Origin: a virus
Taxonomy: Duplodnaviria > Caudoviricetes
Strand: one strand, 5' to 3'
DNA length: 24,385 nt
Virus record (IMG/VR): IMGVR_UViG_3300037048_000303
Span: 1 to 24,385 of that record
Part shown: positions 2,093 through 22,331 of the stretch, in pieces
Layout of the letters: each line of letters opens with the position of its first letter
Numbering within the stretch: position 1 is the stretch's first letter
The notes under the pieces: generated by a model
Database searches by the model: none
What the model saw: the letters and a program-made list of their open reading frames with translations, nothing else
Told to the model about the DNA's origin: nothing
Made by a program: the position numbers and the translations under genes

Positions 2093-3451
2093 ATGGCAAA
2101 CGTACAATTCAATAATTCTGGTGTTCCTTTAATCGGTTATGGAAACCGTGGCATGTACCTCAGTACAACTGGAGCTCCACTGGAAAAACCAAAGAAAACA
2201 GCAACACCACAACAGGTAGATCCCGATAAAACTTTAGTTGAAAATTATTCTATATCAGACTGGGGCGCAGGTAACAACTTCCCGCAATTCGCCGATGGCG
2301 TTATTAACTCAGTCAGTGTGCTGAACAGCGGATTAAAGTTTATCCGCAATTTTACATTAGGGCAGGGCATATTTCCGGTAACAGTGGAAGGCTTCGATGA
2401 TAATGGCAACGAAGTGCTGAAACAACTCACCGACCCGAAAATCCGCGCTTTTGCCAACAGCCGTATGGTCCGGCGATACCTCGAAAAAGCCACACGCGAT
2501 TACCTCAAATTTGGCCCTGCCTTTGTTCAGCTTCTGCCAAACGCTGATGGAAGCCAGCTTGTAGGTATCAACACCATTAATGCCAAGTATAGCCGACTCA
2601 GTGTTGCAAACGCTAATGGCTCAATTGAAAAGTGCATCGTTTCAGGAAAATGGCCGGATACTCCTTCAAAATCAGAGTACACCATTCACGATGTTCTTGA
2701 CGAATACGATCCGGAAGCAGATTTAAAACGCCGTCAGTATGCAAGATCAATAAAAGGAAAAAGTTTTATACAGGTAATTCGCGATAGTTGGAGCAACAAC
2801 GAATATTACAGCTCTCCGGTCTGGAATTCAGCCTACACTGCCGGATGGATTGATGTTGCAAAGGCAATACCATCATTTTTAAAACAGGCTTACACCAACC
2901 AAATCACATGGAAATGGCACGTTCAGATTCCATACGCTTTCTGGGACAGAAAATTCCCGGAAGCAGAATACCCGGATGTCGCGCTTCGCTCACAGGCCAT
3001 CAACAAATTTATGGATGAAATCGAAGATAATCTTTGCGGCACTGCCAACGCAAACAAACCAGTCTTCACTATGTTTGAAGTCGGCCCCAGTGGAAGAACC
3101 GAAGAGCAGTGGATCATCACACCACTACAAAATAAACTCAGCAGCGAACAGGATTTAATCTCAAGTGCAGCTGCAAACTCTGAAATCCTGTTCTCCCTGA
3201 TGGTTAACCCAAATGTGTTGGGCGCAGGAATGCCCGGGGGAGCTTATGCTGGAAATCAAGGCGGTAGCAATATCCGCGAAGCTTTCCTGGTCAATATCGC
3301 AAATGCCTGGCTCGACCGGCAGAACCTGCTCGACCCGCTTGAAACCTTTGTGAAATTTAACGGCGCTCCCGAAACAATGGAGTGGAGATTCAGAAATACA
3401 ATTTTAACAACTCTTGATACCGGCAGCGGTACCAAAAAAACTTTAAGCTAA
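2093..3451 (+). CDS. Phage portal protein
   Basis: 452 aa with WGAGNNFPQ, DYLKFG, YYSSPVW, EILFSLMVNPNVLG and GSNIREAF motifs typical of Bacteroidota phage portals. First large gene of the morphogenesis operon. Confidence 0.8.
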   Translation: MANVQFNNSGVPLIGYGNRGMYLSTTGAPLEKPKKTATPQQVDPDKTLVENYSISDWGAGNNFPQFADGVINSVSVLNSGLKFIRNFTLGQGIFPVTVEGFDDNGNEVLKQLTDPKIRAFANSRMVRRYLEKATRDYLKFGPAFVQLLPNADGSQLVGINTINAKYSRLSVANANGSIEKCIVSGKWPDTPSKSEYTIHDVLDEYDPEADLKRRQYARSIKGKSFIQVIRDSWSNNEYYSSPVWNSAYTAGWIDVAKAIPSFLKQAYTNQITWKWHVQIPYAFWDRKFPEAEYPDVALRSQAINKFMDEIEDNLCGTANANKPVFTMFEVGPSGRTEEQWIITPLQNKLSSEQDLISSAAANSEILFSLMVNPNVLGAGMPGGAYAGNQGGSNIREAFLVNIANAWLDRQNLLDPLETFVKFNGAPETMEWRFRNTILTTLDTGSGTKKTLS

Positions 3452-6194: not shown

Positions 6195-6224
6195 GCATTC
6201 ATGCATTATAGCATTCACGCATTT
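6195..6224 (+). repeat. Octamer tandem repeat (GCATTCAT GCATTATA GCATTCAC GCATTT)
   Basis: Read directly from the sequence. A related CATTCACGCATTT recurs at ~11323-11335. Confidence 0.75.
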
Positions 6225-6229
6225 ATTTG

Positions 6230-6265
6230 TGTCCTTTCCCATCATTCTTCCCTAACCTACTTTTA
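6230..6265 (+). promoter_or_regulatory. Bipartite phage promoter copy 2: TGTCCTTT-N20-TACTTTTA
   Basis: TGTCCTTT at 6230-6237, exactly 20 nt, then TACTTTTA at 6258-6265. Upstream of the tape measure gene. Confidence 0.75.
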
Positions 6266-6344: not shown

Positions 6345-9300
6345 ATGGCAACAACCTATACAAGACGAATAAACCTTTACATCAACGGCAAACAGGTTTC
6401 TGCCGATATTGTTTCCATCCGTAAGGAAATGTCAAAGCTTGTAAACGAACAGGCACGCATGACCCTCGGCAGCAAAGATTATGTAAAACATACCGCCAAA
6501 ATCAAATCCCTCAAAACAATCATCGACCAACACAATCAGGATTTAAGCACTACCCATAAAAAGTGGAATAACTTCCAAAAAATGGCTGATGCTGCCAACC
6601 GCTATTTTGCTGTTATCACCGCAGGTATTGCCGCAGTTGCAGGCGCTGTTATGACAGTAAAACAAACCGTTGAAGCTTTTGCCGAATATGATGATAAGCT
6701 TGTGGACGTTATGAAAACCACCGACCTGACCAAAATGGAAACCCAGGCGCTGAATGAGGAAATCCGCAAAATAAATACCCGCACAGCACAAATCGAATTG
6801 CTTGAACTGGCCCGGGTAGCCGGTAAACTCGGTATCAGGGGAAAGGAAGATATTCTGGGTTTCGTAAATGCAACAGATAAAATAAAAGTCGCTCTGGCCG
6901 AAGATTTGGGCGGCGATACGGAAGAATCCGTTCGCCAGCTCGGAAAACTGGTTGACATCTTCAAACTCGATCAGGAATTTACAATGGAGGAATCATTGCT
7001 AAAAATTGGTAGCGCAATGAATGCCCTGGGCGCTTCCGGTACTGCCAACGAAGGTTACATGCTCGAATTCACAAAACGGGTGGCCGGGGTAGCTCCAACA
7101 GCAGGCATAACCATCGACAAAATTCTGGGTATCGCAACTACGCTTGATGAATTGGGCCAAACTTCGGAGGTTTCCGGAACAGCATTTAACCAGGTTATCA
7201 GCAATATGTTTAAAAATACTGCCGATTACGCACATGTGGCTGGTATGGAACTGCAGGCTTTTACCGATTTAATGAACGAAGATGCCAACGAAGCCCTTAT
7301 TCAGTTATTGATTGGCGCCAAAGGCAGTACCGATGGTTTTGGGCAATTGGCAAAATCTCTCAGCTCACTGGGAATGGATGGTGTTCGCGCTACAAACGTT
7401 CTTGGTGTACTGGCTGCCAACATCGATCAGCTTCGCGAAAACCAAAAGTTTAGTAACGAAGAATTTGTAAAAGGAAATTCACTTTTAATAGAGTTCAACA
7501 AAAAGAACAACAGCGCACAGGCTAACCTTGAAAAAGCCTCAAAAATATTTAAACAGGTACAGGTTGATTTGGGCGAAAAACTTGCTCCCATTTATGCCAG
7601 TACAATCAAAAAAGCATCCACACTGCTTAAAGTTTTTGGCGCTACCGTCGAATTCCTGTTCAAATATGGTGCAACCATTGTTTTTGCAACCGGCTACCTG
7701 ATTACTTATACCGCAGCAGTTAAGATACTGGCTTTATGGGAAGCACGAAAAAACACACAGATGGGCCTTGGCCTTGTTGTACTCCGCGCCAACATTTTCT
7801 TAAATCGTGCCGGAAGCGCTGCAATGCTGCTTTATGCTGCTGCAGTTGCAGTACTCGAAGGTAATTTTAAACGTGCTGCCGTTGCAATGCGCCTGTTTAT
7901 GGCTTTTGCATCTGCAACGCCCATCGGGCTTGCTTTTACTGCAATCGCCGGGCTGATTCTCGCTATACGTGGCTATGATAAATACATGAGCGGAGCCAAT
8001 GAACGTGCCCAACAGCAAGCTAAAGCATTAAAAGATTTAAAAATAATGACCGATGCCTACACCGGCCATCTTGAAAAATTGAATGATACCATAAAGGATT
8101 CAAACACACTTACCCTGGAACAAAAAAGAGTGATGGCTGAATCGAGCGCTGAAATGATTGGCGCTATCGAAAATACAATCCGTCTGCAAAAACTCGAACA
8201 GGATATGCTTCGCCAAACGAACACAAGGGCCACACTCTGGCAAAAAACAGTCAATATCTTTAAATCCGGTGGTAACCCATACCTCACCGCTTCATTAAAC
8301 ATGATGGATGCAGTTGAAAACGGGCAGGAAGCCGCGGAAACCATGAACACAGGAATCGACCAGCTTGAAAACACCATGATAGGTTTAAAGGGAGCTGCAA
8401 AAGGTGTTTGGGAAATCGTTAATGCTGAAAGCATTGGTGATAAAATCGGTACCGAATCACTGGTGATGATGAACGAAAAACTGGCAAAATACAAGATTGC
8501 CCTCGACAATGCCATTTTTGGAGGCAAAGATTATATCCGGATTCAACAGAAAATTAAGGATTTGGAAAGTAAAATGAATCCCCCCAAATGGACATCCGAT
8601 GATGAAATCAACCAGCAAATCGAAGTTCTCACAGCAGCGTTTAATAAAAAACAAGCGCTTATCCGTCAGGATTATCTTAAAGGCAAAACCAATGAGGATG
8701 AATACAATGACCTGATGCTACTGAGCGAGCTAAAATTCCTTGACGATAAACTCAAAATATATAACGCCGGTTCACAGGAATACCAGGAAGCTGTAAACAA
8801 AGCCCTCGAATTGCAGGTAGCAGTGGATATTAAGCTTCGCGATTTACAGTTAAAAGCTGTTGAAGAACTGGCTAACGCCAAAATCGAAAATTTCCGCGAT
8901 GAATTTCAACGTCAGGAAGAAGCCGAAATTGAACGTTGGAATCAGGAAAAAACCGCACTGGAAAAACAATTATTTGACAAAGTTACCCTGAATGAAAAAG
9001 AACAGGCCATCAACGATGCTATCCATCAGATAATACAGGAAAAGGAAAAGAAACATCAGCAGGTAATGGCCGACCTGAAAACCGGCAAGAATCTGGTTGA
9101 CCTTGAAAATATGGTTACTGCAACCGATCCTTTTGATGAAGAAGTTGCTCCGCTGGAACAAATGCAGGAATCTTTTAACGCCCGGGCTGAACTGATTCAG
9201 GCACAATATGTCAACGAACTTAATCTGGCTGCCGGAAACCACGCTGCAATGCTGGCCGCAGAAAAAAGATACAGCGACGCTATGCTTCAGCTTAAACTCG

Positions 9301-10007
9301 ATATGGTTGATGCTGAATGGATGCAACGTGAACAACGCATTGAAGCCGCACAGTCATTTGTAACAGCCCTGTCCGGTATCGTTGATCAGGAAACAGCACT
9401 CGGAAAAGCTTTATTTGCATTTAACCAGGGATTAGCGATTGCTGAAATCTGGGTAAGCCTTGCAAAAGCAAACGCCGCAGCATTACTCCTTGGTCCCGGT
9501 GCCGCCGCTATGATACCATTTAACACAGCTATTGCAGTTGCTCAAACAGCAATGGTGCTGGCACAAACGGTTAAATCTTTCTCAAAACCTTCAAATGATG
9601 CAGGCTACTCAGATGGTGGGCCAACCGGTCCCGGAGGAAAAAAAGAACCTGCCGGCATCGTACATAAAGGCGAATATGTGCTTTCTCAGGATATGCTCGC
9701 TGACCCAAATGTGAGATACCTTACTCAAATATTTGAAAAAATGAGAACCCGAAGGATTTCACTCAGTCAGGCTGCAATGCCTCTTTTATCTTCCGGAGGA
9801 TTTTCATCAGCAAACAGAAGTTCATCCACAATGATTTTGCCGGATTATCCCGACAATTCAAAAGCATTGCAACAACAAACTGAAGCCAATCTTGCCCTGG
9901 CAAAAGCAATTAATCTTTTCATGAATTACAGGCCGGCAGTGGCAATAGATGCCATAGAACGCGAACGTGAAAAATATTTACGAATCAAACAAACAAGCGG
10001 ATTATGA
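6345..10007 (+). CDS. Phage tail tape measure protein (TP901-like core), 1220 aa
   Basis: AFAEYDDKLVDVMKTT...LLELARVAGKLG core, long Ala/Leu-rich helical and hydrophobic segments, coiled coils, and a C-terminal GYSDGGPTGPGGKKEPAGIVHKGEYV motif. Confidence 0.92.
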   Translation: MATTYTRRINLYINGKQVSADIVSIRKEMSKLVNEQARMTLGSKDYVKHTAKIKSLKTIIDQHNQDLSTTHKKWNNFQKMADAANRYFAVITAGIAAVAGAVMTVKQTVEAFAEYDDKLVDVMKTTDLTKMETQALNEEIRKINTRTAQIELLELARVAGKLGIRGKEDILGFVNATDKIKVALAEDLGGDTEESVRQLGKLVDIFKLDQEFTMEESLLKIGSAMNALGASGTANEGYMLEFTKRVAGVAPTAGITIDKILGIATTLDELGQTSEVSGTAFNQVISNMFKNTADYAHVAGMELQAFTDLMNEDANEALIQLLIGAKGSTDGFGQLAKSLSSLGMDGVRATNVLGVLAANIDQLRENQKFSNEEFVKGNSLLIEFNKKNNSAQANLEKASKIFKQVQVDLGEKLAPIYASTIKKASTLLKVFGATVEFLFKYGATIVFATGYLITYTAAVKILALWEARKNTQMGLGLVVLRANIFLNRAGSAAMLLYAAAVAVLEGNFKRAAVAMRLFMAFASATPIGLAFTAIAGLILAIRGYDKYMSGANERAQQQAKALKDLKIMTDAYTGHLEKLNDTIKDSNTLTLEQKRVMAESSAEMIGAIENTIRLQKLEQDMLRQTNTRATLWQKTVNIFKSGGNPYLTASLNMMDAVENGQEAAETMNTGIDQLENTMIGLKGAAKGVWEIVNAESIGDKIGTESLVMMNEKLAKYKIALDNAIFGGKDYIRIQQKIKDLESKMNPPKWTSDDEINQQIEVLTAAFNKKQALIRQDYLKGKTNEDEYNDLMLLSELKFLDDKLKIYNAGSQEYQEAVNKALELQVAVDIKLRDLQLKAVEELANAKIENFRDEFQRQEEAEIERWNQEKTALEKQLFDKVTLNEKEQAINDAIHQIIQEKEKKHQQVMADLKTGKNLVDLENMVTATDPFDEEVAPLEQMQESFNARAELIQAQYVNELNLAAGNHAAMLAAEKRYSDAMLQLKLDMVDAEWMQREQRIEAAQSFVTALSGIVDQETALGKALFAFNQGLAIAEIWVSLAKANAAALLLGPGAAAMIPFNTAIAVAQTAMVLAQTVKSFSKPSNDAGYSDGGPTGPGGKKEPAGIVHKGEYVLSQDMLADPNVRYLTQIFEKMRTRRISLSQAAMPLLSSGGFSSANRSSSTMILPDYPDNSKALQQQTEANLALAKAINLFMNYRPAVAIDAIEREREKYLRIKQTSGL

Positions 10008-13848: not shown

Positions 13849-13850
13849 AA

Positions 13851-14040
13851 TTGCTCCACAAAAAGGGTTCAGGACTGTAACCGCAAAATACAACAAGTTA
13901 GATTCCTTTTGGGCAGGAATCCCAATTCGGAATGTATGCTGAACAGCCCAACAGCCGGAAAGCTCGCGCTTCCGTTAACATCGCTCCAGAATTCCGCGAT
14001 GAATTTTTTGACTTACGGATTCGCAGGCGAATCTAAACAA
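13851..14040. other. Multi-hairpin non-coding element (structured RNA or non-autonomous element)
   Basis: Hairpins at 13901-13921, 13956-13974, 13979-14001 and 14018-14033. Long-range complements GTTCAG/CTGAAC and TTGGGC/GCCCAA. Confidence 0.45.
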
Positions 14041-14050
14041 GGTACAAACG

Positions 14051-14104
14051 TAATTTTTAATTCCTGCCTGACAGCAGGCAGGTTTAATTTCTAATTTTTA
14101 ATTG
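14051..14104. repeat. TAATTTT heptamer array interrupted by the palindrome CCTGCCTG-ACAG-CAGGCAGG
   Basis: Perfect 8-bp stem at 14063-14082, embedded between TAATTTT/TAATTTC heptamers. Confidence 0.8.
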
Positions 14105-14109
14105 ACACC

Positions 14110-15420
14110 ATGGCCGATGAAAGAATAAGAACAAAAAGTGAACTAAAACACCTCTTCACCAATCTCAAACGGAAAGGCATATCTGACGATATGATTTCCA
14201 TTCTTATTGATAGCCTTTGGCGGGATCGCGCCAACCAGCGTTCCAGTGGCTTTTATCATGCCGGTGGTTATGATGCTGAATTCTCTTTCAATATAAATAC
14301 ACGCATTTTCTCAATCAAACCTTTCGATCCGCTGGTCGAAAACTTTGAACCCCGCTACTCCGTTTTTTCCTGGTCAAATGAAGCCATTCTCCATCGCATT
14401 TTCACACTACACGAAATTGTAATACCAAATGAGGAAGGTCTGTTTTGCATTTATTTTGACAAAGAACCAGAACCAGGCCGTGGACGGATTCTGTTTTTCA
14501 AAAAGAATCCCACAACCATTGAACTTGAAGAAATCTATGTTTCAAAAATTCTGATTTCCTGTTTCTATTGGAATGCTGAAAACTCTGATTTAGTCCACTT
14601 CGGTGATGACAGGCATGGCAGCGAATGGAACCCGCAAATCAAATGGTATATTCATAACAGCCTGGCAGCACAAAGAAAAACAGGATTGCAATTGGCTAAC
14701 TACATTCTGAATGGTGATGGCAGTTCGAACGATCACGCAAAATTCAATATCACCGGCGGAGTTATGATCCACGATGATTTTGAAATGACCATCCCGGAAT
14801 CGACAACTACGATACCTGTTCTTTTTTTTACCGACCATAAACCCCGTTTTGCTTCGAACACCGGCTATGCTGTGGCAACCAGCGACCGCGTTCTCTATAA
14901 TCCCGGCCTGACAAGTATTGAAGATGTTGACAACGGCAATTATGTGCTTTACCATATTTTTGCCACCAACGAAATTTTAACGGCCAGCCGGAAGATTATT
15001 TCGGTAATGGGAGCGGCGCAATACACTTCTGTACAAGCCGCTTTTACCGCAGCAGAGGCAGAAACAGACAGTATCAGAAACCTGATGCCCATGCAGGGCA
15101 AATGTTATATCGACAGCTTAATATTTCAAGTATCAGATAATTATACCAATGCTGTAAAAGCCCGGATAGTTGGTTTTGTGAATTCCCTTTTGCATGAAAC
15201 CAGCGAGTATGTAACCGAACGGTTAGCAGGCAGTATCGACGGCGTAAACACCGTGTTTACAACATCGAAACCGTATGTTCCGGGCAAAATATTTGTCCTT
15301 TTGAATGGTTTAAAAGAGTACGATTTTTCGGAAATTAATAATACAACGATTCAAATGGACGATCCGCCAAACAATTCGGGTTTTACGGATATACTTGAAT
15401 GTATTTACAAACCAAAATAA
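14110..15420 (+). CDS. Tail fibre/baseplate-attachment protein (436 aa)
   Basis: N-terminal RTKSELKHLF...ILIDS anchor-like motif. C-terminal GSIDGVNTVFT...NG...PP...DIL..Y small beta domain common in phage fibre adaptors. Confidence 0.6.
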   Translation: MADERIRTKSELKHLFTNLKRKGISDDMISILIDSLWRDRANQRSSGFYHAGGYDAEFSFNINTRIFSIKPFDPLVENFEPRYSVFSWSNEAILHRIFTLHEIVIPNEEGLFCIYFDKEPEPGRGRILFFKKNPTTIELEEIYVSKILISCFYWNAENSDLVHFGDDRHGSEWNPQIKWYIHNSLAAQRKTGLQLANYILNGDGSSNDHAKFNITGGVMIHDDFEMTIPESTTTIPVLFFTDHKPRFASNTGYAVATSDRVLYNPGLTSIEDVDNGNYVLYHIFATNEILTASRKIISVMGAAQYTSVQAAFTAAEAETDSIRNLMPMQGKCYIDSLIFQVSDNYTNAVKARIVGFVNSLLHETSEYVTERLAGSIDGVNTVFTTSKPYVPGKIFVLLNGLKEYDFSEINNTTIQMDDPPNNSGFTDILECIYKPK

Positions 15421-15438: not shown

Positions 15439-16503
15439 ATGACAACAAAAATCAGAAGCAGTAAGCAGCTACACATAGATGCCAGCCTTAACCTTAATAA
15501 TCAGAAAATTGTATCACTTAACCCTGGTAGTGCTGGTACCGATGCTGTTAATGTTGATCAACTAAACACTGCAATTGGTGATGCTACTTCCGGACTGGGT
15601 AATTCAATTCATGTTCCGGTTCAGGACCTTGCAGCGGCAAAAGCCATTATAGCTGCCGAAAGGGCAGATAAAATGATTATGAACATCGAATCGCTCGGGT
15701 TATACCGTTACGATTTGGAAAGTGTTGCGGCAAGCAATGACGATACAGTTATAAGGCCAACGGATATTGCCAGCGATGCAACGCCGGGCAGGTGGATAAA
15801 AATGAGCAGCACAATCAATGACCACAACAACCTATCAAACATACAGGGCGGAACAGTAGGGCAATACAACCACTTAACAAACGCTCAACTTGGCGCACTT
15901 CATGCCGCAGAAACAGCTTCATCGATTGGTGTGATTGTGAATGGAGCAGCGGCGGCAACGCCAAATGATACCGACCTTGTGGCTACGGTTGAAAGCAGTG
16001 TTGTTAAGAAAATAACCTGGACGAACGTAAAGGCATTTCTGAAAACCTATTTTGATGGAATTTACTGGCTTAAAACTGCCACCGGCGCGGTTACTATTTC
16101 TGGAACAGTTACAGCAATAACCGACAAAGCCGTTACCCTTGTAAAAATGGCCGACGTTGCAACAGCTACATTTCTGGGCAGAACCACGGCGGCAACCGGT
16201 GTACCCGAAGCCATGACAGTTGCACAGGCACGAACATTACTTGGTCTTACTTCGCTGAACCTGGCACAGCGAAAATACAGGGTAACGCCAACCGGAGTAA
16301 TTAACGGATCGAACCTTGTTTTTACCATTGCCGACAATGTTATTTCAGGATCGGAAGAGGTTTTTAAAAACGGGGTTTTACAAACTGCAACCGTTAATTA
16401 TACAGTCAGTTACGGAGCAACTACAACCATCACTTTTATTGCTGAATATGTACCTTCGAATGTGGGCTACAATGATGTTTTATCTGTAAACTATTCAATT
16501 TAA
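15439..16503 (+). CDS. Tail fibre protein (354 aa)
   Basis: LNNQKIVSL..G...TDAVNVDQL, HNNLSNIQGG...YNHLT, KKITWTNVKA, ITDKAVTLVKMA and TVAQARTLLG fibre motifs, plus the same C-terminal beta domain as the previous gene. Confidence 0.75.
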   Translation: MTTKIRSSKQLHIDASLNLNNQKIVSLNPGSAGTDAVNVDQLNTAIGDATSGLGNSIHVPVQDLAAAKAIIAAERADKMIMNIESLGLYRYDLESVAASNDDTVIRPTDIASDATPGRWIKMSSTINDHNNLSNIQGGTVGQYNHLTNAQLGALHAAETASSIGVIVNGAAAATPNDTDLVATVESSVVKKITWTNVKAFLKTYFDGIYWLKTATGAVTISGTVTAITDKAVTLVKMADVATATFLGRTTAATGVPEAMTVAQARTLLGLTSLNLAQRKYRVTPTGVINGSNLVFTIADNVISGSEEVFKNGVLQTATVNYTVSYGATTTITFIAEYVPSNVGYNDVLSVNYSI

Positions 16504-16507
16504 CAAT

Positions 16508-19500
16508 ATGAAAAAAATACTTTTAATCGCTGCGCTTTTTATAAGCACGATAAATTATGGGCAACCGTTAATCAGGCTTTCTCAGATTGAACCCATACAG
16601 GGAACTGTGATAAAATCGACCGGAGAAACAGCCGGAAAAGTTTTGACCACAAACGGAACCAATGGATCACTTTGGCAAGCGCCTCTGATTTACGCACCAT
16701 TAACAGGAGGTACAAATTATATCCAAAACCAAAACTCCTCTGCCCAAACTGCAGATATGTGGATTACCGGGGATATAACAGCAGGCGGAAATTTATCTAA
16801 CTCAATGAGTTTCCTGATTCCTTTAACCACTTTTGACAATACGGAAGGAATTATTTTTAAGGGTGGAAACAGGTTCATCCATGATTTTAATTATGGAGTA
16901 AGGGGAGCGGTGACATTTATAGGCAGAAATACTTTTATTGGTTCTAATTCCGGTAATTTTACAATGGGTTCAACTTCAACTTTGTCAAATTACTCTTCGA
17001 ATAATACAGGTGTCGGTTGGGAAACTTTAACTGCTATGACCACGGGGTATGAGAATACAGCAATGGGTTCGTCTGCCCTCACCGCAAATACAACAGGAAA
17101 TCAGAATAGTGCTTTTGGTACTCCTTCCCTTGTTGCTAACACCACAGGAAGAATGAACACTGCAATGGGTTACACTTCTCTACCTGCTAACACCACAGGA
17201 CATTATAACACTGCTATTGGCGCAAGTTCTCTTCGTGTGAATTCTTCTGGTAGTAGTAACACTGCAGTAGGTTCTACCACACTTTATAGCGCCACTATCG
17301 CAGCGAACAATTCTGCATTTGGATATTACTCTATGCTTAGTACCACAGGCGGAAACAACACCGCTTCTGGCGCATCGTCTTTTATGAATAACACCACAGG
17401 TATTGGAAACTCTGCTTATGGAGTTGAGGCGGGCAATCTAATTGCATCCGGATCAAGCAGAACCACAGGAAACTATAATGTGTATTTAGGGATGCAAACA
17501 AGAGCGAGCGCATTAGCAACTACTAACGAAATAGTTATAGGCTACACCGCAATAGGAAGTGGAAGCAATACAGTCCGGTTGGGCAACACTTCAATAACCG
17601 ACGTTTATACAAGCGGCAAAATAACCCACGCGAATGCAACATTATCAACTCACTCCGCAACTTTCGGGCAGGTAATACAAAACCAAAACGCCTTAGCCCA
17701 AATAGCAGAAATGTATATTAATGGAAATGTTAGGGGTAACACATTGCAATCGCACGTAGCCACTGGCACAGCCCCATTAACCGTTGCAAGTACTACGCTG
17801 GTAACTAACTTGAACGCGGATTTGCTGGATGGGCAACATGGAACGTATTATTCACCGACAACACATGGCCACGGAACTATATATAATGCTTATATAAGTG
17901 ACTTAAATACACTTGCATATTCTTCACTTGGTTTGTATTATGACACTTATCTTAGTACAGCAGCTAACAATCCGTACGCACCTGATAATGCCAACGGTGT
18001 TATTACAATGGTTTCACACGGTTCTGGTGGTAGCGGCACTTATGGAAAACAAATAGCTTTTCCAGACAATGATGATATATATATCAGGAAATTTGTCAAT
18101 GGAACATTTGGAAGTTGGTTTAAATTACTTCACAGCGGCAACACAACCATTCCAACCAATACAAATCAACTTACTAACGGTGCAGGGTTTATTACGGATG
18201 GAAATACAGGCTGGGATAATAGTTATGGATTTATTACTGATGGAAATACAGGCTGGGACAATATTTATGGCTTTATTACTTCGGATACGGGCGATGAAGT
18301 TTTGGTAAACGGTGGAAGTACAACAAATCCAAATTTTACAACATCAGGGAGCATAACTTTTGTGAACAATGCAAATGTTATCACTGCAAATCTAAATCAA
18401 GTTGCTGGATTAACCCCCGGAAGTTATACCAACGCAAACATAACAGTTGGTGGTGATGGCAGATTAACATTAGCCAGTAATGGGAGTGGCGGTACAGTGT
18501 ATGCACCAACGAATGTTAACTACCTTGTAGGTACGGCTGATGCCACTCTTACAAACGAAATAGTTGTGGGTACATCTCCCGGCGGCGACCTTCAAGGCGC
18601 TGGTTCAACATGGGCAAGCCCGCAGATTTCAGCAAACGCAATCACAGCAACCGAAATTGCAAACACATCAATCACAATACCAAAACTAAGCCAGTATAAT
18701 TCTCCTGTTTCAGGTTATGCGGTTACTGTTTACGATGCCAATTCTGTTGCATTTTCGCCTCTGCCAACCGGATTACCCAGCCAGTCAGGACATAGCGGTA
18801 AATTTTTAACAACAAACGGAAGTGCTGCATCGTGGACTAACACAGGCTTCGTTACTTCCGTTGCAGCCGGAAACGGAATGGTTTTTACAACCATAACAGG
18901 AACCGGTACAGTAACTTTAGGAACACCAGGCGATATTACCAGTACTTCCACCAGTTCAGTATCGGCAAGTAGTCACACACACGCATTCAATAACACGGGT
19001 GTGACTGCAAATTCATATACAAATGCAAATATTACGGTTGATGCAAAGGGTAGAATAACAGCGGCATCAAATGGAAGTGCAGGTGGTTCCGCTGGTGGCT
19101 CAACAAACCACGTTCAGTATAATATTTCAGGTTCATTTGGAGGAAAAGCCGATTTTTCATTTAATCCAACCACGAATCAATTAACTGTTTCGGGTTCGAT
19201 GGTTTCAGGAAACTTTATTATTGGTTCAGACAGGCGATTAAAAACGGGTATTCAACCAATTAATAATTTAAGTTGGGTTGACCAAATTCACTTCAAATCG
19301 TTTTTAATGCGAAATGATTTAACTGCAAGAATGAGATATGGAGTTATTGCACAGGAAGTTGAAAAAGTAAATCCGGAACTGGTTTTTACAGATGAAACGG
19401 GTTATAAATCGGTTGGATATGTTGACTTGCTGATTGCAAAAGTAGCAAGGCAGGATGAAATTATAAATAGCCTTAGTAAACGATTGGAACAATTAGAAAA

Positions 19501-19561
19501 TAAAGAAAATGAAGAAGATTTTGTTATTATTAGCGGTATTAAATATTCAGTTAGCCGTTAA
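16508..19561 (+). CDS. Long tail fibre with C-terminal intramolecular chaperone (peptidase S74/ICA) and N-terminal Sec signal peptide, 1017 aa
   Basis: Signal peptide MKKILLIAALFISTINYG|Q. Repeated NTAxG..xL..NTTG beta-solenoid units, GTAPLTVASTTLVTNLNADLLDG, a knob-like YIRK...GSW domain and 2x GSYTNANITV..GR.T.ASNG. SDRRLK...YGVIAQEV...V.Y..L ICA motif from 19226. Confidence 0.88.
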   Translation: MKKILLIAALFISTINYGQPLIRLSQIEPIQGTVIKSTGETAGKVLTTNGTNGSLWQAPLIYAPLTGGTNYIQNQNSSAQTADMWITGDITAGGNLSNSMSFLIPLTTFDNTEGIIFKGGNRFIHDFNYGVRGAVTFIGRNTFIGSNSGNFTMGSTSTLSNYSSNNTGVGWETLTAMTTGYENTAMGSSALTANTTGNQNSAFGTPSLVANTTGRMNTAMGYTSLPANTTGHYNTAIGASSLRVNSSGSSNTAVGSTTLYSATIAANNSAFGYYSMLSTTGGNNTASGASSFMNNTTGIGNSAYGVEAGNLIASGSSRTTGNYNVYLGMQTRASALATTNEIVIGYTAIGSGSNTVRLGNTSITDVYTSGKITHANATLSTHSATFGQVIQNQNALAQIAEMYINGNVRGNTLQSHVATGTAPLTVASTTLVTNLNADLLDGQHGTYYSPTTHGHGTIYNAYISDLNTLAYSSLGLYYDTYLSTAANNPYAPDNANGVITMVSHGSGGSGTYGKQIAFPDNDDIYIRKFVNGTFGSWFKLLHSGNTTIPTNTNQLTNGAGFITDGNTGWDNSYGFITDGNTGWDNIYGFITSDTGDEVLVNGGSTTNPNFTTSGSITFVNNANVITANLNQVAGLTPGSYTNANITVGGDGRLTLASNGSGGTVYAPTNVNYLVGTADATLTNEIVVGTSPGGDLQGAGSTWASPQISANAITATEIANTSITIPKLSQYNSPVSGYAVTVYDANSVAFSPLPTGLPSQSGHSGKFLTTNGSAASWTNTGFVTSVAAGNGMVFTTITGTGTVTLGTPGDITSTSTSSVSASSHTHAFNNTGVTANSYTNANITVDAKGRITAASNGSAGGSAGGSTNHVQYNISGSFGGKADFSFNPTTNQLTVSGSMVSGNFIIGSDRRLKTGIQPINNLSWVDQIHFKSFLMRNDLTARMRYGVIAQEVEKVNPELVFTDETGYKSVGYVDLLIAKVARQDEIINSLSKRLEQLENKENEEDFVIISGIKYSVSR
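18185..18280 (+). repeat. 42-bp in-frame tandem repeat (GFITDGNTGWDNxY x2.3) in the tail fibre
   Basis: Units at 18185-18226 and 18227-18268, partial unit at 18269-18280. Confidence 0.9.
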
Positions 19562-20438
19562 CTCACAACTGGTAGTTGTGCCGAATAATACCACGTTCTC
19601 ACTGCAAGATGTTTATGCTGCAATACAGTTTCACTCCAATTCTGTAACCGGCGATTTGTCGTCATGCTTTTCGAATGCTATTCCGCAGTTCTTTGACCCG
19701 ACTTATAATCAGGTCGGTTACGCTCCTGCAAACAGTATGCTTCGTTTCAGAAACTACGGACCAAAATACACGCAAACATTCACATCATCCGGATCATGGA
19801 CAAACTCGGTATCGGGAACGCTAAAAGCAGTGGTTTTGTGCTGGGGGCCGGGCGGCAGTGGTGGTTGTGGGCTTAATTCGACTAACTTTTACGGCGGTGG
19901 CGGCGGTGGCGGCGGCGGCTTTATTAAAGCCTTAATGGACGTTGCAGTAGGAAACTCATACAGTTATCTTGTTGGTGCAGGTGGCGGAGCATCATATAAT
20001 GGTTCTAATGGACAAGCCGGAACTTCAAGAACAGACTTTACAGCAGCAACACAATTTATAGCAGCACAACCGGGGCAAGGTGGAATGTCTTATAGTGGAG
20101 GAAGAACAGGTGGCGCAGGCGGGGGAACTTCTACAGGCGGAATAACGGCATTAAATTCATACAACGGCGGCAATGGTGCAACAGCACCCCTGAACGGCGC
20201 ATCGCCCTATTCAGGTGGCGGTGGTGGTGGTGCAGGAACAACCGGCGCAGGGAATAATGGGTCTGGCGCAACCGGCGGGGCAGCAAAAAGTATTGACGGG
20301 GGTGTTGGTGGAAATGGGTCAGTAGTTGCAAGTGGCAATGGTATATCAGGAGGTGTTTCTGGTGGCGGCGGCGGTGGATCAACACAAAGCGGTGTGTCCG
20401 GCCCAGGAGTGGCAGGTAAAATAATAATTTACTATTAA
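19509..20438 (+). CDS. Glycine-rich adhesin (gp38-like architecture) with Sec signal peptide, 309 aa
   Basis: Signal peptide MKKILLLLAVLNIQLAVNS|Q. Short N-domain VPNNTTFSLQDV...CF...FDP.Y...NSMLRFRNYG, then a TFTSSGSWT...WGPGGSGG...GGGGGGGG...GKIIIYY polyglycine domain. Confidence 0.75.
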   Translation: MKKILLLLAVLNIQLAVNSQLVVVPNNTTFSLQDVYAAIQFHSNSVTGDLSSCFSNAIPQFFDPTYNQVGYAPANSMLRFRNYGPKYTQTFTSSGSWTNSVSGTLKAVVLCWGPGGSGGCGLNSTNFYGGGGGGGGGFIKALMDVAVGNSYSYLVGAGGGASYNGSNGQAGTSRTDFTAATQFIAAQPGQGGMSYSGGRTGGAGGGTSTGGITALNSYNGGNGATAPLNGASPYSGGGGGGAGTTGAGNNGSGATGGAAKSIDGGVGGNGSVVASGNGISGGVSGGGGGGSTQSGVSGPGVAGKIIIYY

Positions 20439-20469
20439 CATAAAAATAATAATTTAAAAAAAAACACAA

Positions 20470-21114
20470 ATGAAAAAAACACTTTTAATTTTAGTGATGC
20501 TGCTTGCTGGGTTTGCAGGATTTGCACAAACAGAACTCGAACGCGTTAGTGAAAGTTTCAAAACAGTAAAGGACACATCGTATTCCAATGACGAAAGGCT
20601 GACGTTTATGGTTAACACCATACTTCCGGCAGTTAACAATTATTTCGAGAATTATAATGCCAAAACGAAGGTCAATGGAGAAGCGGTCACGTTTCAGGCA
20701 CAAACCACAACATTTGTTCAGGGTTTGAATAACCTGATTTATTCTTACGCGCAAAACTTTATTCAAATTACACAAGTCCAGGTAGATTCGAGCAGTATTG
20801 TTGCGGAGTTTAATGCGCTTAACCAAAGAATAACCACTTTACAACAAGACCCGGACATAAAGTATCTTGAAGCCATGCGTGAGTTTCAGGAAATTCAGGA
20901 ACGTCAGGCCAAACTTGCCAAATATTACGATCAGCTTATTACTACTGTAAAACCAGTAGTAAAAGATAGTGAATGGGTAAAACCTACAGGCACAGTTAAT
21001 GCCTATAAAAAGGGCGCAAGAGTTACTTATAGTGGGAAAACATGGGAGAGCTTAATTGATGCCAATCAATCGACACCCGGAGTTTCGGATTGGAAAGAAA
21101 TTATAATAAAATAA
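20470..21114 (+). CDS. Secreted coiled-coil protein with C-terminal CBM5/12-like carbohydrate-binding module, 214 aa
   Basis: Signal peptide MKKTLLILVMLLAGFAGFA|Q, helical middle region, and C-terminal WVKPTG...AYKKGARVTYSGKTWESLIDAN...PG..W. Confidence 0.72.
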   Translation: MKKTLLILVMLLAGFAGFAQTELERVSESFKTVKDTSYSNDERLTFMVNTILPAVNNYFENYNAKTKVNGEAVTFQAQTTTFVQGLNNLIYSYAQNFIQITQVQVDSSSIVAEFNALNQRITTLQQDPDIKYLEAMREFQEIQERQAKLAKYYDQLITTVKPVVKDSEWVKPTGTVNAYKKGARVTYSGKTWESLIDANQSTPGVSDWKEIIIK

Positions 21115-21883: not shown

Positions 21884-22288
21884 ATGATTGAATTTGCTAA
21901 CATCACCGACCTGGAGGCGATAAAGGTTTTTTTCTATATCGAATCTGTTATTTTAGTTATTGCATTTGGCATTATCGGGTTCTTTTTAAGGCGCCGTGAC
22001 AATGCCAGTATTACCCGCGAATTAGCCGTAACAGCAGCCACGGACAATCTCACTACCGCAGTACAACAGCTAAAATTAGTGGTTGCCAGTTTACAGGTAC
22101 AATACGAAATCAGGCAGCCTCTGATAGATTCTCAAATTGAAATATTTCGAAAAGCCTTTTTAGAAAATGCTATCTCTATTAAGGGAATAGATACACGGTT
22201 GATTAAACTTGAAACAGAACACAGATTAATGAGCTGTAAATACCCGGCAAATAACATAACAATAAATAACAATGAAAACTCTGATTGA
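21884..22288 (+). CDS. Single-TM coiled-coil membrane protein (holin/spanin-like), 134 aa
   Basis: TM segment VFFYIESVILVIAFGIIGFFL followed by RRR and a coiled coil. Immediately precedes the endolysin stub. Confidence 0.55.
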   Translation: MIEFANITDLEAIKVFFYIESVILVIAFGIIGFFLRRRDNASITRELAVTAATDNLTTAVQQLKLVVASLQVQYEIRQPLIDSQIEIFRKAFLENAISIKGIDTRLIKLETEHRLMSCKYPANNITINNNENSD

Positions 22289-22331
22289 AATTGCTTTAAG
22301 CCAGTACGGAGTTGAAAACATGCCATTATAG
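22272..22331 (+). pseudogene. Truncated endolysin stub (TIGR02594/NlpC-P60-like N-terminus)
   Basis: MKTLIEIALSQYGVENMPL* overlaps the holin-like gene by 17 nt. (L/I)EIALSQYGV is the opening I recognise from TIGR02594-type phage lysins, but the expected continuation (G..NP.I...DE..WC) is absent in all frames read. Confidence 0.55.

Follow-up and report, generated by a model that had tools for sequence, protein, structure and literature searches.

Why should the fibre genes of a tailed phage encode signal peptides, when tailed phages are considered to assemble their complete particles in the cytoplasm? The question is raised by three consecutive genes (16508 to 21114) in a 24,385-nucleotide (nt) stretch of Caudoviricetes DNA, all of IMG/VR record IMGVR_UViG_3300037048_000303, which is called the window in the following. 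It carries a Bacteroidota prophage with a portal fold, a tape measure protein and an integrase (the latter two from Pfam and PHROG matches, the portal from an AlphaFold2 (AF2) model and Foldseek), and the three genes encode a tail fibre, a tip-adhesin-like protein and a smaller protein. An earlier note, made from the letters alone, had suggested that all three are exported and folded in the periplasm and then (a) dock onto virions at or after lysis, (b) mask or sequester the receptor or (c) act as a prophage-encoded surface fibre. As judged from sequence comparison and structure models, the signal-bearing fibre/adhesin combination is a real and recurrent feature, encountered also in many uncultured phages that are not related to this one, with a concrete, testable mechanism of attachment. 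Probably both proteins leave the cytoplasm, take on their fold in the periplasm and attach to the particles when the cell lyses.

Leaders of the three genes

The genes, named below by their start positions, and their relevant parts are:

16508..19561, + strand: 1017-amino-acid (aa) tail fibre in which a signal peptide and a repeat stalk precede an S74 autocleaving chaperone at the C-terminus (Pfam/PHROG; SDRRLK at residue 907)
16508..16561, + strand: predicted Sec/signal peptidase I (SPI) signal peptide of the fibre, residues 1–18, with the cut expected between G and Q (sequence rule; in 7/7 orthologues)
19226..19384, + strand: Peptidase_S74 domain (PF13884, E 1.6e-13)
19509..20438, + strand: 309-aa tip-adhesin-like protein with signal peptide, phage anchor-like domain of about 60 aa (phrog_21885, ‘VPN’) and glycine-rich polyglycine sandwich (Pfam/PHROG, fold)
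19509..19565, + strand: predicted signal peptide of the adhesin, residues 1–19, with the cut expected between S and Q (sequence rule)
20470..21114, + strand: 214-aa signal-bearing protein with weak C-terminal similarity to carbohydrate-binding modules (CBM) 5/12 (Pfam, PHROG, signal rule)

All three N-termini consist of MKK, a hydrophobic core and a small residue followed by Gln, and translation of the open reading frames (ORFs) gave them as the earlier note had quoted them. In-frame stops immediately precede each ATG and leave no room for a longer N-terminus. The best eight-residue hydropathy reaches 3.35–3.70 in the three leaders vs 0.67–1.46 in the upstream fibre genes 13402, 14110 and 15439, which are indeed without a leader. 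Our own heuristic rule (not SignalP) called 19509 and 20470 as SPI substrates with Gln at +1, and 16508 was graded just signal-like because of an Asn at −3; shuffled versions received any SPI or signal-like call in 0.3–1.1% of 5000 trials. The leaders thus show the features of the Bacteroidota Sec/SPI Q-rule, namely a basic n-region, a hydrophobic h-region, a small residue at −1 and Gln at +1, with the Asn at −3 of the fibre being atypical. The earlier note had seen neither a lipobox nor a type IX secretion system (T9SS) C-terminal domain in these proteins, in agreement with the absence of Cys from the first 52 residues of all three and of T9SS matches in Pfam at E 0.01. In total the 1017-, 309- and 214-aa proteins have 0, 3 and 0 Cys, the first Cys of the 309-aa protein being residue 53. 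The leader and start of the adhesin (19509–19561) overlap the last 53 nt of the fibre gene; P0149 has the same read-through tail at the fibre 3' end and P0150 ends earlier.

The fibre shows the sequence and context marks of an S74-chaperoned phage tail fibre, as it has a C-terminal Peptidase_S74 domain (PF13884 above cut-off, as labelled before) with the SDxxxK motif and its gene lies inside a tailed-phage tail cluster. A search with residues 19–100 gave eight matches among 166 candidates: the query, six orthologues and one weak match, which was excluded from the family. All seven members have a leader ending in GQ, which bears out the expected conservation among homologues, although one of the leaders is visible only via a longer cluster member. 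M1, G18 and Q19 are the sole invariant residues of the leader, which holds its n/h/c pattern despite sequence divergence, and the following 18 residues are strongly conserved (IRxSQIExIQGTVIKS). The middle of the fibre is a mosaic and common with host-type proteins; fibre residues 1–400 as query gave mostly repeat-region matches, useless for orthology. Of 118 repeat-region matches 40 start signal-like. Six viral loci matching the fibre-family alignment were discarded as weak matches with signal-less fibres from unrelated-looking phages. A PDB sequence search with the mature fibre gave no match.

Fibre/adhesin pairs in other phages

The adhesin joins two domains behind its leader, one of them with a distribution of its own (‘VPN’, like ‘VxxNG’ below, is a label coined in this analysis):

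19578..19763, + strand: VPN domain; in phage proteins that lack a signal it stands close to the N-terminus (mostly at residue 2–5), or it directly follows a signal peptide

The glycine-rich label given to this protein before holds (Gly_rich_2 above cut-off, E 1.8e-7), and PF21722 together with the fold matches 7ypx and 9d93 identifies the second domain as a polyglycine II sandwich receptor-binding domain. The adhesin model (predicted local distance difference test, pLDDT, 80) matches the Pam3 fibre 7ypx with Z 22.1 and a root-mean-square deviation of 1.9 Å over 186 aa, and the Bxb1 tail tip 9d93 with Z 18.7. No match for the VPN domain was obtained in this fold search and gp38 was not listed, which is no evidence of difference as residues 20–85 were barely probed.

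The VPN family phrog_21885 occurs in 1361 clusters. Among the best 150 of them it stands after a signal-like leader in 23, and the remaining 127 have its start at residue 12 or before. Viral loci with the domain numbered 70 vs 2 genome loci, both phage-like. From 94 VPN genes 54 were distinct, and after removal of 21 without a complete adjacent upstream ORF and four without an S74 gene upstream, 29 fibre/adhesin pairs from diverse phages remained. Both partners bear a signal in 10 of these, neither in 17, the adhesin only in two and the fibre only in none (Fisher p 3.3e-6, a value that ignores kinship; signal-bearing adhesins had been deliberately enriched by a DNA pattern that is blind to the fibre). 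This profile-based count supersedes one with a strict motif (9/0/0/14), which had hidden the two discordant pairs, and five of seven loci of the Q-x-VPN DNA pattern were without a VPN gene and dropped. A tree of the VPN domain needs 10 changes, and a single signal-bearing clade is rejected (approximately unbiased (AU) test, p 2.5e-5). In several architectures, the signal-bearing pairs have a gene for a tape measure protein, portal, terminase, capsid or endolysin as neighbour. At L089:5222-8644 a signal-bearing fibre and VPN gene stand between portal and endolysin/head protease genes, and therefore the module may decorate the head or neck in some phages.

Both discordant adhesins have a leader ending in Cys before a retained normal start, one upstream start being lost in an N run. 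VPN adhesins with such a lipobox-type leader were seen at L081:5400, L079:1237, L073:10007 and in P0004-P0008; the leader precedes a retained normal start in L081, L079 and L073, and L081 adjoins a signal-less fibre. Possibly these are dual-start genes, which might give one product for the virion and another that is tethered to the membrane and blocks the receptor.

Adaptors and predicted docking of the mature fibre

Directly upstream of the fibre lie two genes that could provide its point of attachment:

15439..16503, + strand: 354-aa signal-less adaptor fibre with N-terminal docking-type peptide, YadA-stalk motif and C-terminal capture domain
16261..16500, + strand: C-terminal ‘VxxNG’ capture domain, predicted to contact the mature N-terminus of the fibre via K310–V313 and neighbours
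14110..15420, + strand: 436-aa signal-less adaptor with a homologous capture domain at its end; relatives have its N-terminal part joined to S74 fibres that lack a signal
16562..16585, + strand: docking peptide, fibre residues 19–26, the mature N-terminus (predicted complex; the same motif begins signal-less relatives)

The C-terminal domains of about 75 aa of both adaptors are homologous (32% identical, E 3e-6); no viral relative of the 354-aa adaptor was found. The earlier note had proposed a complex prediction of the mature fibre N-terminus with these proteins. With residues 254–354 of the 15439 adaptor and residues 19–75 of the fibre in a 3:3 ratio the predicted complex scored 0.86 vs 0.00 for the best of three controls, passing a mark that 116 of 157 solved complexes and 2 of 215 mismatched pairs had also passed (for this job the counts are only roughly valid); a pass can also stem from likeness to a solved complex. 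The runs agree in 100% of contacts with a partner pLDDT of at least 79, and fibre residues 19–23 and 25–26 are predicted to lie on K310–V313 and neighbouring residues of the adaptor.

Capture domains were present 11 times in the loci examined, 10 of them with a following gene. In 7 of the 10 the next product starts, directly or after a leader, with hydrophobic-R/K/F-x(1–3)-Q-hydrophobic, compared to 15 of 1111 background ORFs, the motif having been defined post hoc from these very sequences. The signal-less protein of L196 has a start almost identical to the mature fibre peptide, and the relative G006 has this chain too, its last members being a signal-bearing S74 fibre and a Gly-rich protein. 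In L077 and L081 an S74 fibre that lacks a signal takes the same slot; it resembles the 436-aa adaptor at its N-terminus and is followed by a VPN gene. Thus the adaptor is predicted to capture the end that would be exposed by cleavage of the fibre signal, which is new here.

A candidate promoter lies further upstream:

6223..6243, + strand: repeated TGTCCTTT element, candidate promoter of the tail operon (function inferred)

Full copies of TGTCCTTT are located at 1482, 6223, 21125 and 21813 and none between 6243 and 21125, confirming that no full copy of this promoter-like element separates the three genes from the tape measure operon; the bare 8-mer occurs inside a gene at 15294. The companion statement that there is no terminator holds in part. 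A hairpin with a T-rich tail is found at 14063–14082, between the tape measure gene and the three genes, and because it lies upstream of both signal-less adaptor genes it does not separate the adaptors from the three genes. It is part of a 260-nt spacer (13850–14110); a T-rich tract is also present before the portal gene, and in L001 and L002 a spacer of similar kind comes after the orthologous gene. Scans of the window for sigma-70 promoters and TAnnTTTG gave chance-level counts.

Glycosylation motifs and possible reasons for export

We also counted the periplasmic O-glycosylation motif of Bacteroidota, D[ST][AILMTV], as defined in PMC11611037 (statements on papers cited by PMC number refer to the parts of them available to us). 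The window fibre family has two motifs vs 26.9 expected, and its five most divergent members two vs 17.9, compared to 35 vs 28.5 for the reversed motif. Eight other signal-bearing fibres show 29 vs 5.8 expected in their first 120 mature residues, and 14 signal-less fibres 9 vs 10.0 in their first 120 residues. Opposite as they are, both biases would suit proteins that encounter an enzyme of the periplasm. Export for the sake of O-glycosylation was rejected for the window locus because its three proteins hold no motif, as was disulfide-dependent folding for the fibre and the 214-aa protein because they have no Cys. The benefit of export might lie in avoiding cytoplasmic defences or premature assembly, which is a guess.

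Proposed route and its alternatives

The following route would account for these data. Leaders are present on the fibre, the adhesin and the 214-aa protein and missing from portal, tape measure and adaptors. After export SPI would cut before Gln, and a host glutaminyl cyclase would cyclise it according to the Q-rule (PMC5837995). The fibre would then trimerise and shed its chaperone, as S74 biology suggests, and the VPN domain of the adhesin could form a cap at the end of the fibre, comparable to gp38 on gp37, which is suggested by gene order and concordance. Holins open the inner membrane, and once this happens the two compartments would mix. The 354-aa adaptor is predicted to take up residues 19–26 of the mature fibre with its C-terminal domain, and a similar peptide would in turn attach this adaptor to the 436-aa one. 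T4 fibres can be added in vitro to fibreless particles. Signal conservation, pair concordance and the glycosylation-motif bias all argue for export as first proposed, and of the three options for the fate of the proteins (a) gained specific support from docking peptide and predicted complex, with (b) and (c) being kept as a rival. In its widest form this would be a two-compartment morphogenesis that evolved repeatedly in Bacteroidota tailed phages, with a portable peptide/capture-domain pair fitting any fibre with a Sec leader, periplasmic staging (host-glycosylated in some lineages, shielded here), a snap-on step at lysis and signal cleavage as the unmasking switch, and to this generalisation we give an even chance.

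Several points weigh against docking of exported fibres. The complex is a model in which the peptide fits the domain, it is silent on place and time, and only the mature form was modelled; the docking motif is post hoc, the VPN tree rests on 58 columns with two strong branches, and two pairs are discordant. An in-frame GTG at the VPN domain of the adhesin could serve as the start of a cytoplasmic form. Concerning glycosylation, signal-less fibres are mildly depleted in the motif over their whole length (59 vs 80.6), the fibre family is also depleted in D[ST] before other residues (7 vs 21.6), its members share segments, and motif ratios over the whole length do not tell fibres with a signal from those without (p 0.17). 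The two cultured phages inspected, phi18:1 and phi38:1, have signal-less versions of the pair, and a cultured phage with a signal-bearing pair was not found. Finally, the window has an IS66 at positions 1–1398 and no endolysin gene that could be recognised as intact. After the genes in lysis position, 22272–22331 holds a 19-codon ORF that presumably resembles a truncated endolysin start, and because of these three features the window copy may be defective.

The exported proteins might instead serve the host envelope and not the virion, either by masking the receptor against superinfection or as a lysogen surface fibre of the MAT type. Signal-bearing S74 fibres are established cell-surface proteins (PMC10769870) and prophage Q-rule proteins have been read as envelope modifiers (PMC10367356), to which the signal-like starts among the repeat-region matches, the lipobox-type adhesins and a possibly defective window copy can be added. 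We nevertheless regard such a role as unlikely, since the three genes have no full TGTCCTTT copy of their own in front and no T9SS signal, the VPN domain is nearly confined to viral loci, and signal-less fibres begin with a peptide that matches the conserved N-terminal one, which is predicted to fit a signal-less adaptor. The element would otherwise also be left without a recognisable receptor-binding tip.

It could also be that the virion is supplied by a cytoplasmic fraction, from unexported precursor or an internal start, with the exported fraction being a by-product or having a second function. The GTG in the adhesin and the canonical start retained behind the lipobox-type leader in L073, L079 and L081 would permit this, and one fibre orthologue has a Met immediately before IRLSQ. 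However, the window fibre has no in-frame start codon between leader and docking peptide, 6 of the 7 orthologues have no Met there, and the motif biases fit selection on a periplasmic form, which makes this explanation improbable. That the leaders are non-functional leftovers or mis-called starts from recombination with host surface-fibre genes, as the mosaic fibre middle and the overlap of adhesin leader and fibre reading frame might suggest, is very hard to reconcile with an n/h/c pattern kept despite divergence, by which this idea is largely refuted, with the precise placement before phage-specific domains in the 23 cluster representatives and with partners that switch their signal state together.

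If docking of exported fibres at lysis is true, it would add a route of morphogenesis, give phages access to periplasmic modification by the host and mean that particles do not become infectious before lysis. With the predicted peptide/domain pair, two short recombinant fragments would suffice to test the idea, and no phage culture. For annotation it means that a signal peptide is an unsafe marker of ‘not a virion gene’.

Relation to known systems

A first counterpart is the gp37/gp38 pair, which assembles in the cytoplasm. In T2/T6/S16-type gp37/gp38 (PMC12032242) the gene next to the fibre gene likewise encodes a small protein, which joins an N-terminal attachment-type domain to a polyglycine II sandwich, and their gene order matches that of the 29 pairs with the S74 fibre directly upstream. 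In contrast to the proteins described here, the available part of PMC12032242 describes no signal peptides for them. Residues 86–309 of the adhesin match the TNF-like plus glycine-rich receptor-binding fold of the cyanophage Pam3 fibre gp24 (7ypx; PMC9608196) and the Bxb1 tail tip chain Q (9d93). Pam3 gp24 is a trimer docking directly on the baseplate and has a separate chaperone (PMC9608196), whereas the adhesin domain here follows a signal peptide and VPN.

With the S74 subgroup of the Bdellovibrio MAT fibres (PMC10769870) the fibre shares a signal peptide, a phage-like stalk and a C-terminal S74 domain with SDxxxK (the trimer being inferred from S74 here). MATs are bacterial surface proteins with a beta-rich, conserved domain about 130 aa long after the signal (PMC10769870, from whose description we set them apart), whereas our fibre stems from a phage tail cluster, also in its relatives, and continues after the signal with a short peptide common to signal-less phage fibres. 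The pair seems to work like gp37/gp38 and to be built like a MAT fibre, and MAT membership failed on gene context. The pair also connects the fibres of phages with the MAT-like surface fibres of bacteria.

Phage genes with SPI leaders and Gln at +1 are also known from Porphyromonas gingivalis Nixviridae prophages (PMC10367356), where the available text gives five Q-rule genes of unknown function, one of them a 144-aa non-fibre protein, and proposes no virion role. In Cellulophaga phi18:1 and phi38:1 the VPN gene directly follows a structural or S74 fibre gene, and unlike here both partners are without signal peptides. Signal-bearing fibres are not described in the available parts of PMC6199706 and PMC5723332, and in an open-access full-text library, subscription papers being outside the scope, no paper on exported virion fibres was listed.

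The 214-aa protein, the element and its relatives

The CBM label of the 20470 product is weak (E 0.0018, below cut-off) and can only be taken as a lead, also in view of the Atlas value of 0.84. Phage matches of this protein are confined to its C-terminal part, and its place in the proposed route is the most tentative of the three.

The context genes of the element are:

2093..3451, + strand: portal protein, 452 aa (AF2 model pLDDT 62.6; Foldseek best E 5.9e-7, template modelling score (TM) about 0.34)
6345..10007, + strand: tape measure protein (Pfam/PHROG)

All matches listed by Foldseek for the moderate model of the 452-aa protein are portal, neck or connector structures. It has 189 relatives among viral contigs, of which 80 were kept. 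The portal, capsid-position and terminase-like proteins of this large family (window 2093–3451, L112-L191) match no named Pfam or PHROG family, and the terminase-like ORFs of the relatives, likewise without such a match, are labelled from position and a Walker-A-like motif only. The region 5' of the portal gene (1907–2057) holds imperfect short direct repeats of 36–48 nt. At L094:5186-6556 a 456-aa protein (phrog_26635) in capsid-like position has a hydrophobic N-terminus. For the relative G006 a completeness of 100% is estimated, and genes for a head protease and for a GH108 endolysin are present; its capsid-position protein gave no match in a PDB sequence search. G006 also encodes a reverse transcriptase (L219:208-1158, phrog_1423, E 6e-128), possibly of a diversity-generating retroelement.

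The window DNA is contained in full in four sequencing runs, all from groundwater and all marked as its possible sources, and no RNA runs are among its listed holders. A relative from a soil run, about 90% alike, has kept both adaptors, the fibre start, the fibre end and the adhesin and differs in the middle, and in the close relative L002 the module is another one, which carries no signals. The signal state varies within the phage family: 3 of 20 stretches (L200, L202 and L209) have signal-bearing fibre-type genes and four have signal-less S74 fibres, the remainder being without an S74 match or outside the module. A second protein family with a different N-terminal domain also follows S74 fibres (L200:8043-9644 vs L206, L210 and L211); it has a signal in L200 and none in L206, L210 and L211, matching its own fibre each time.

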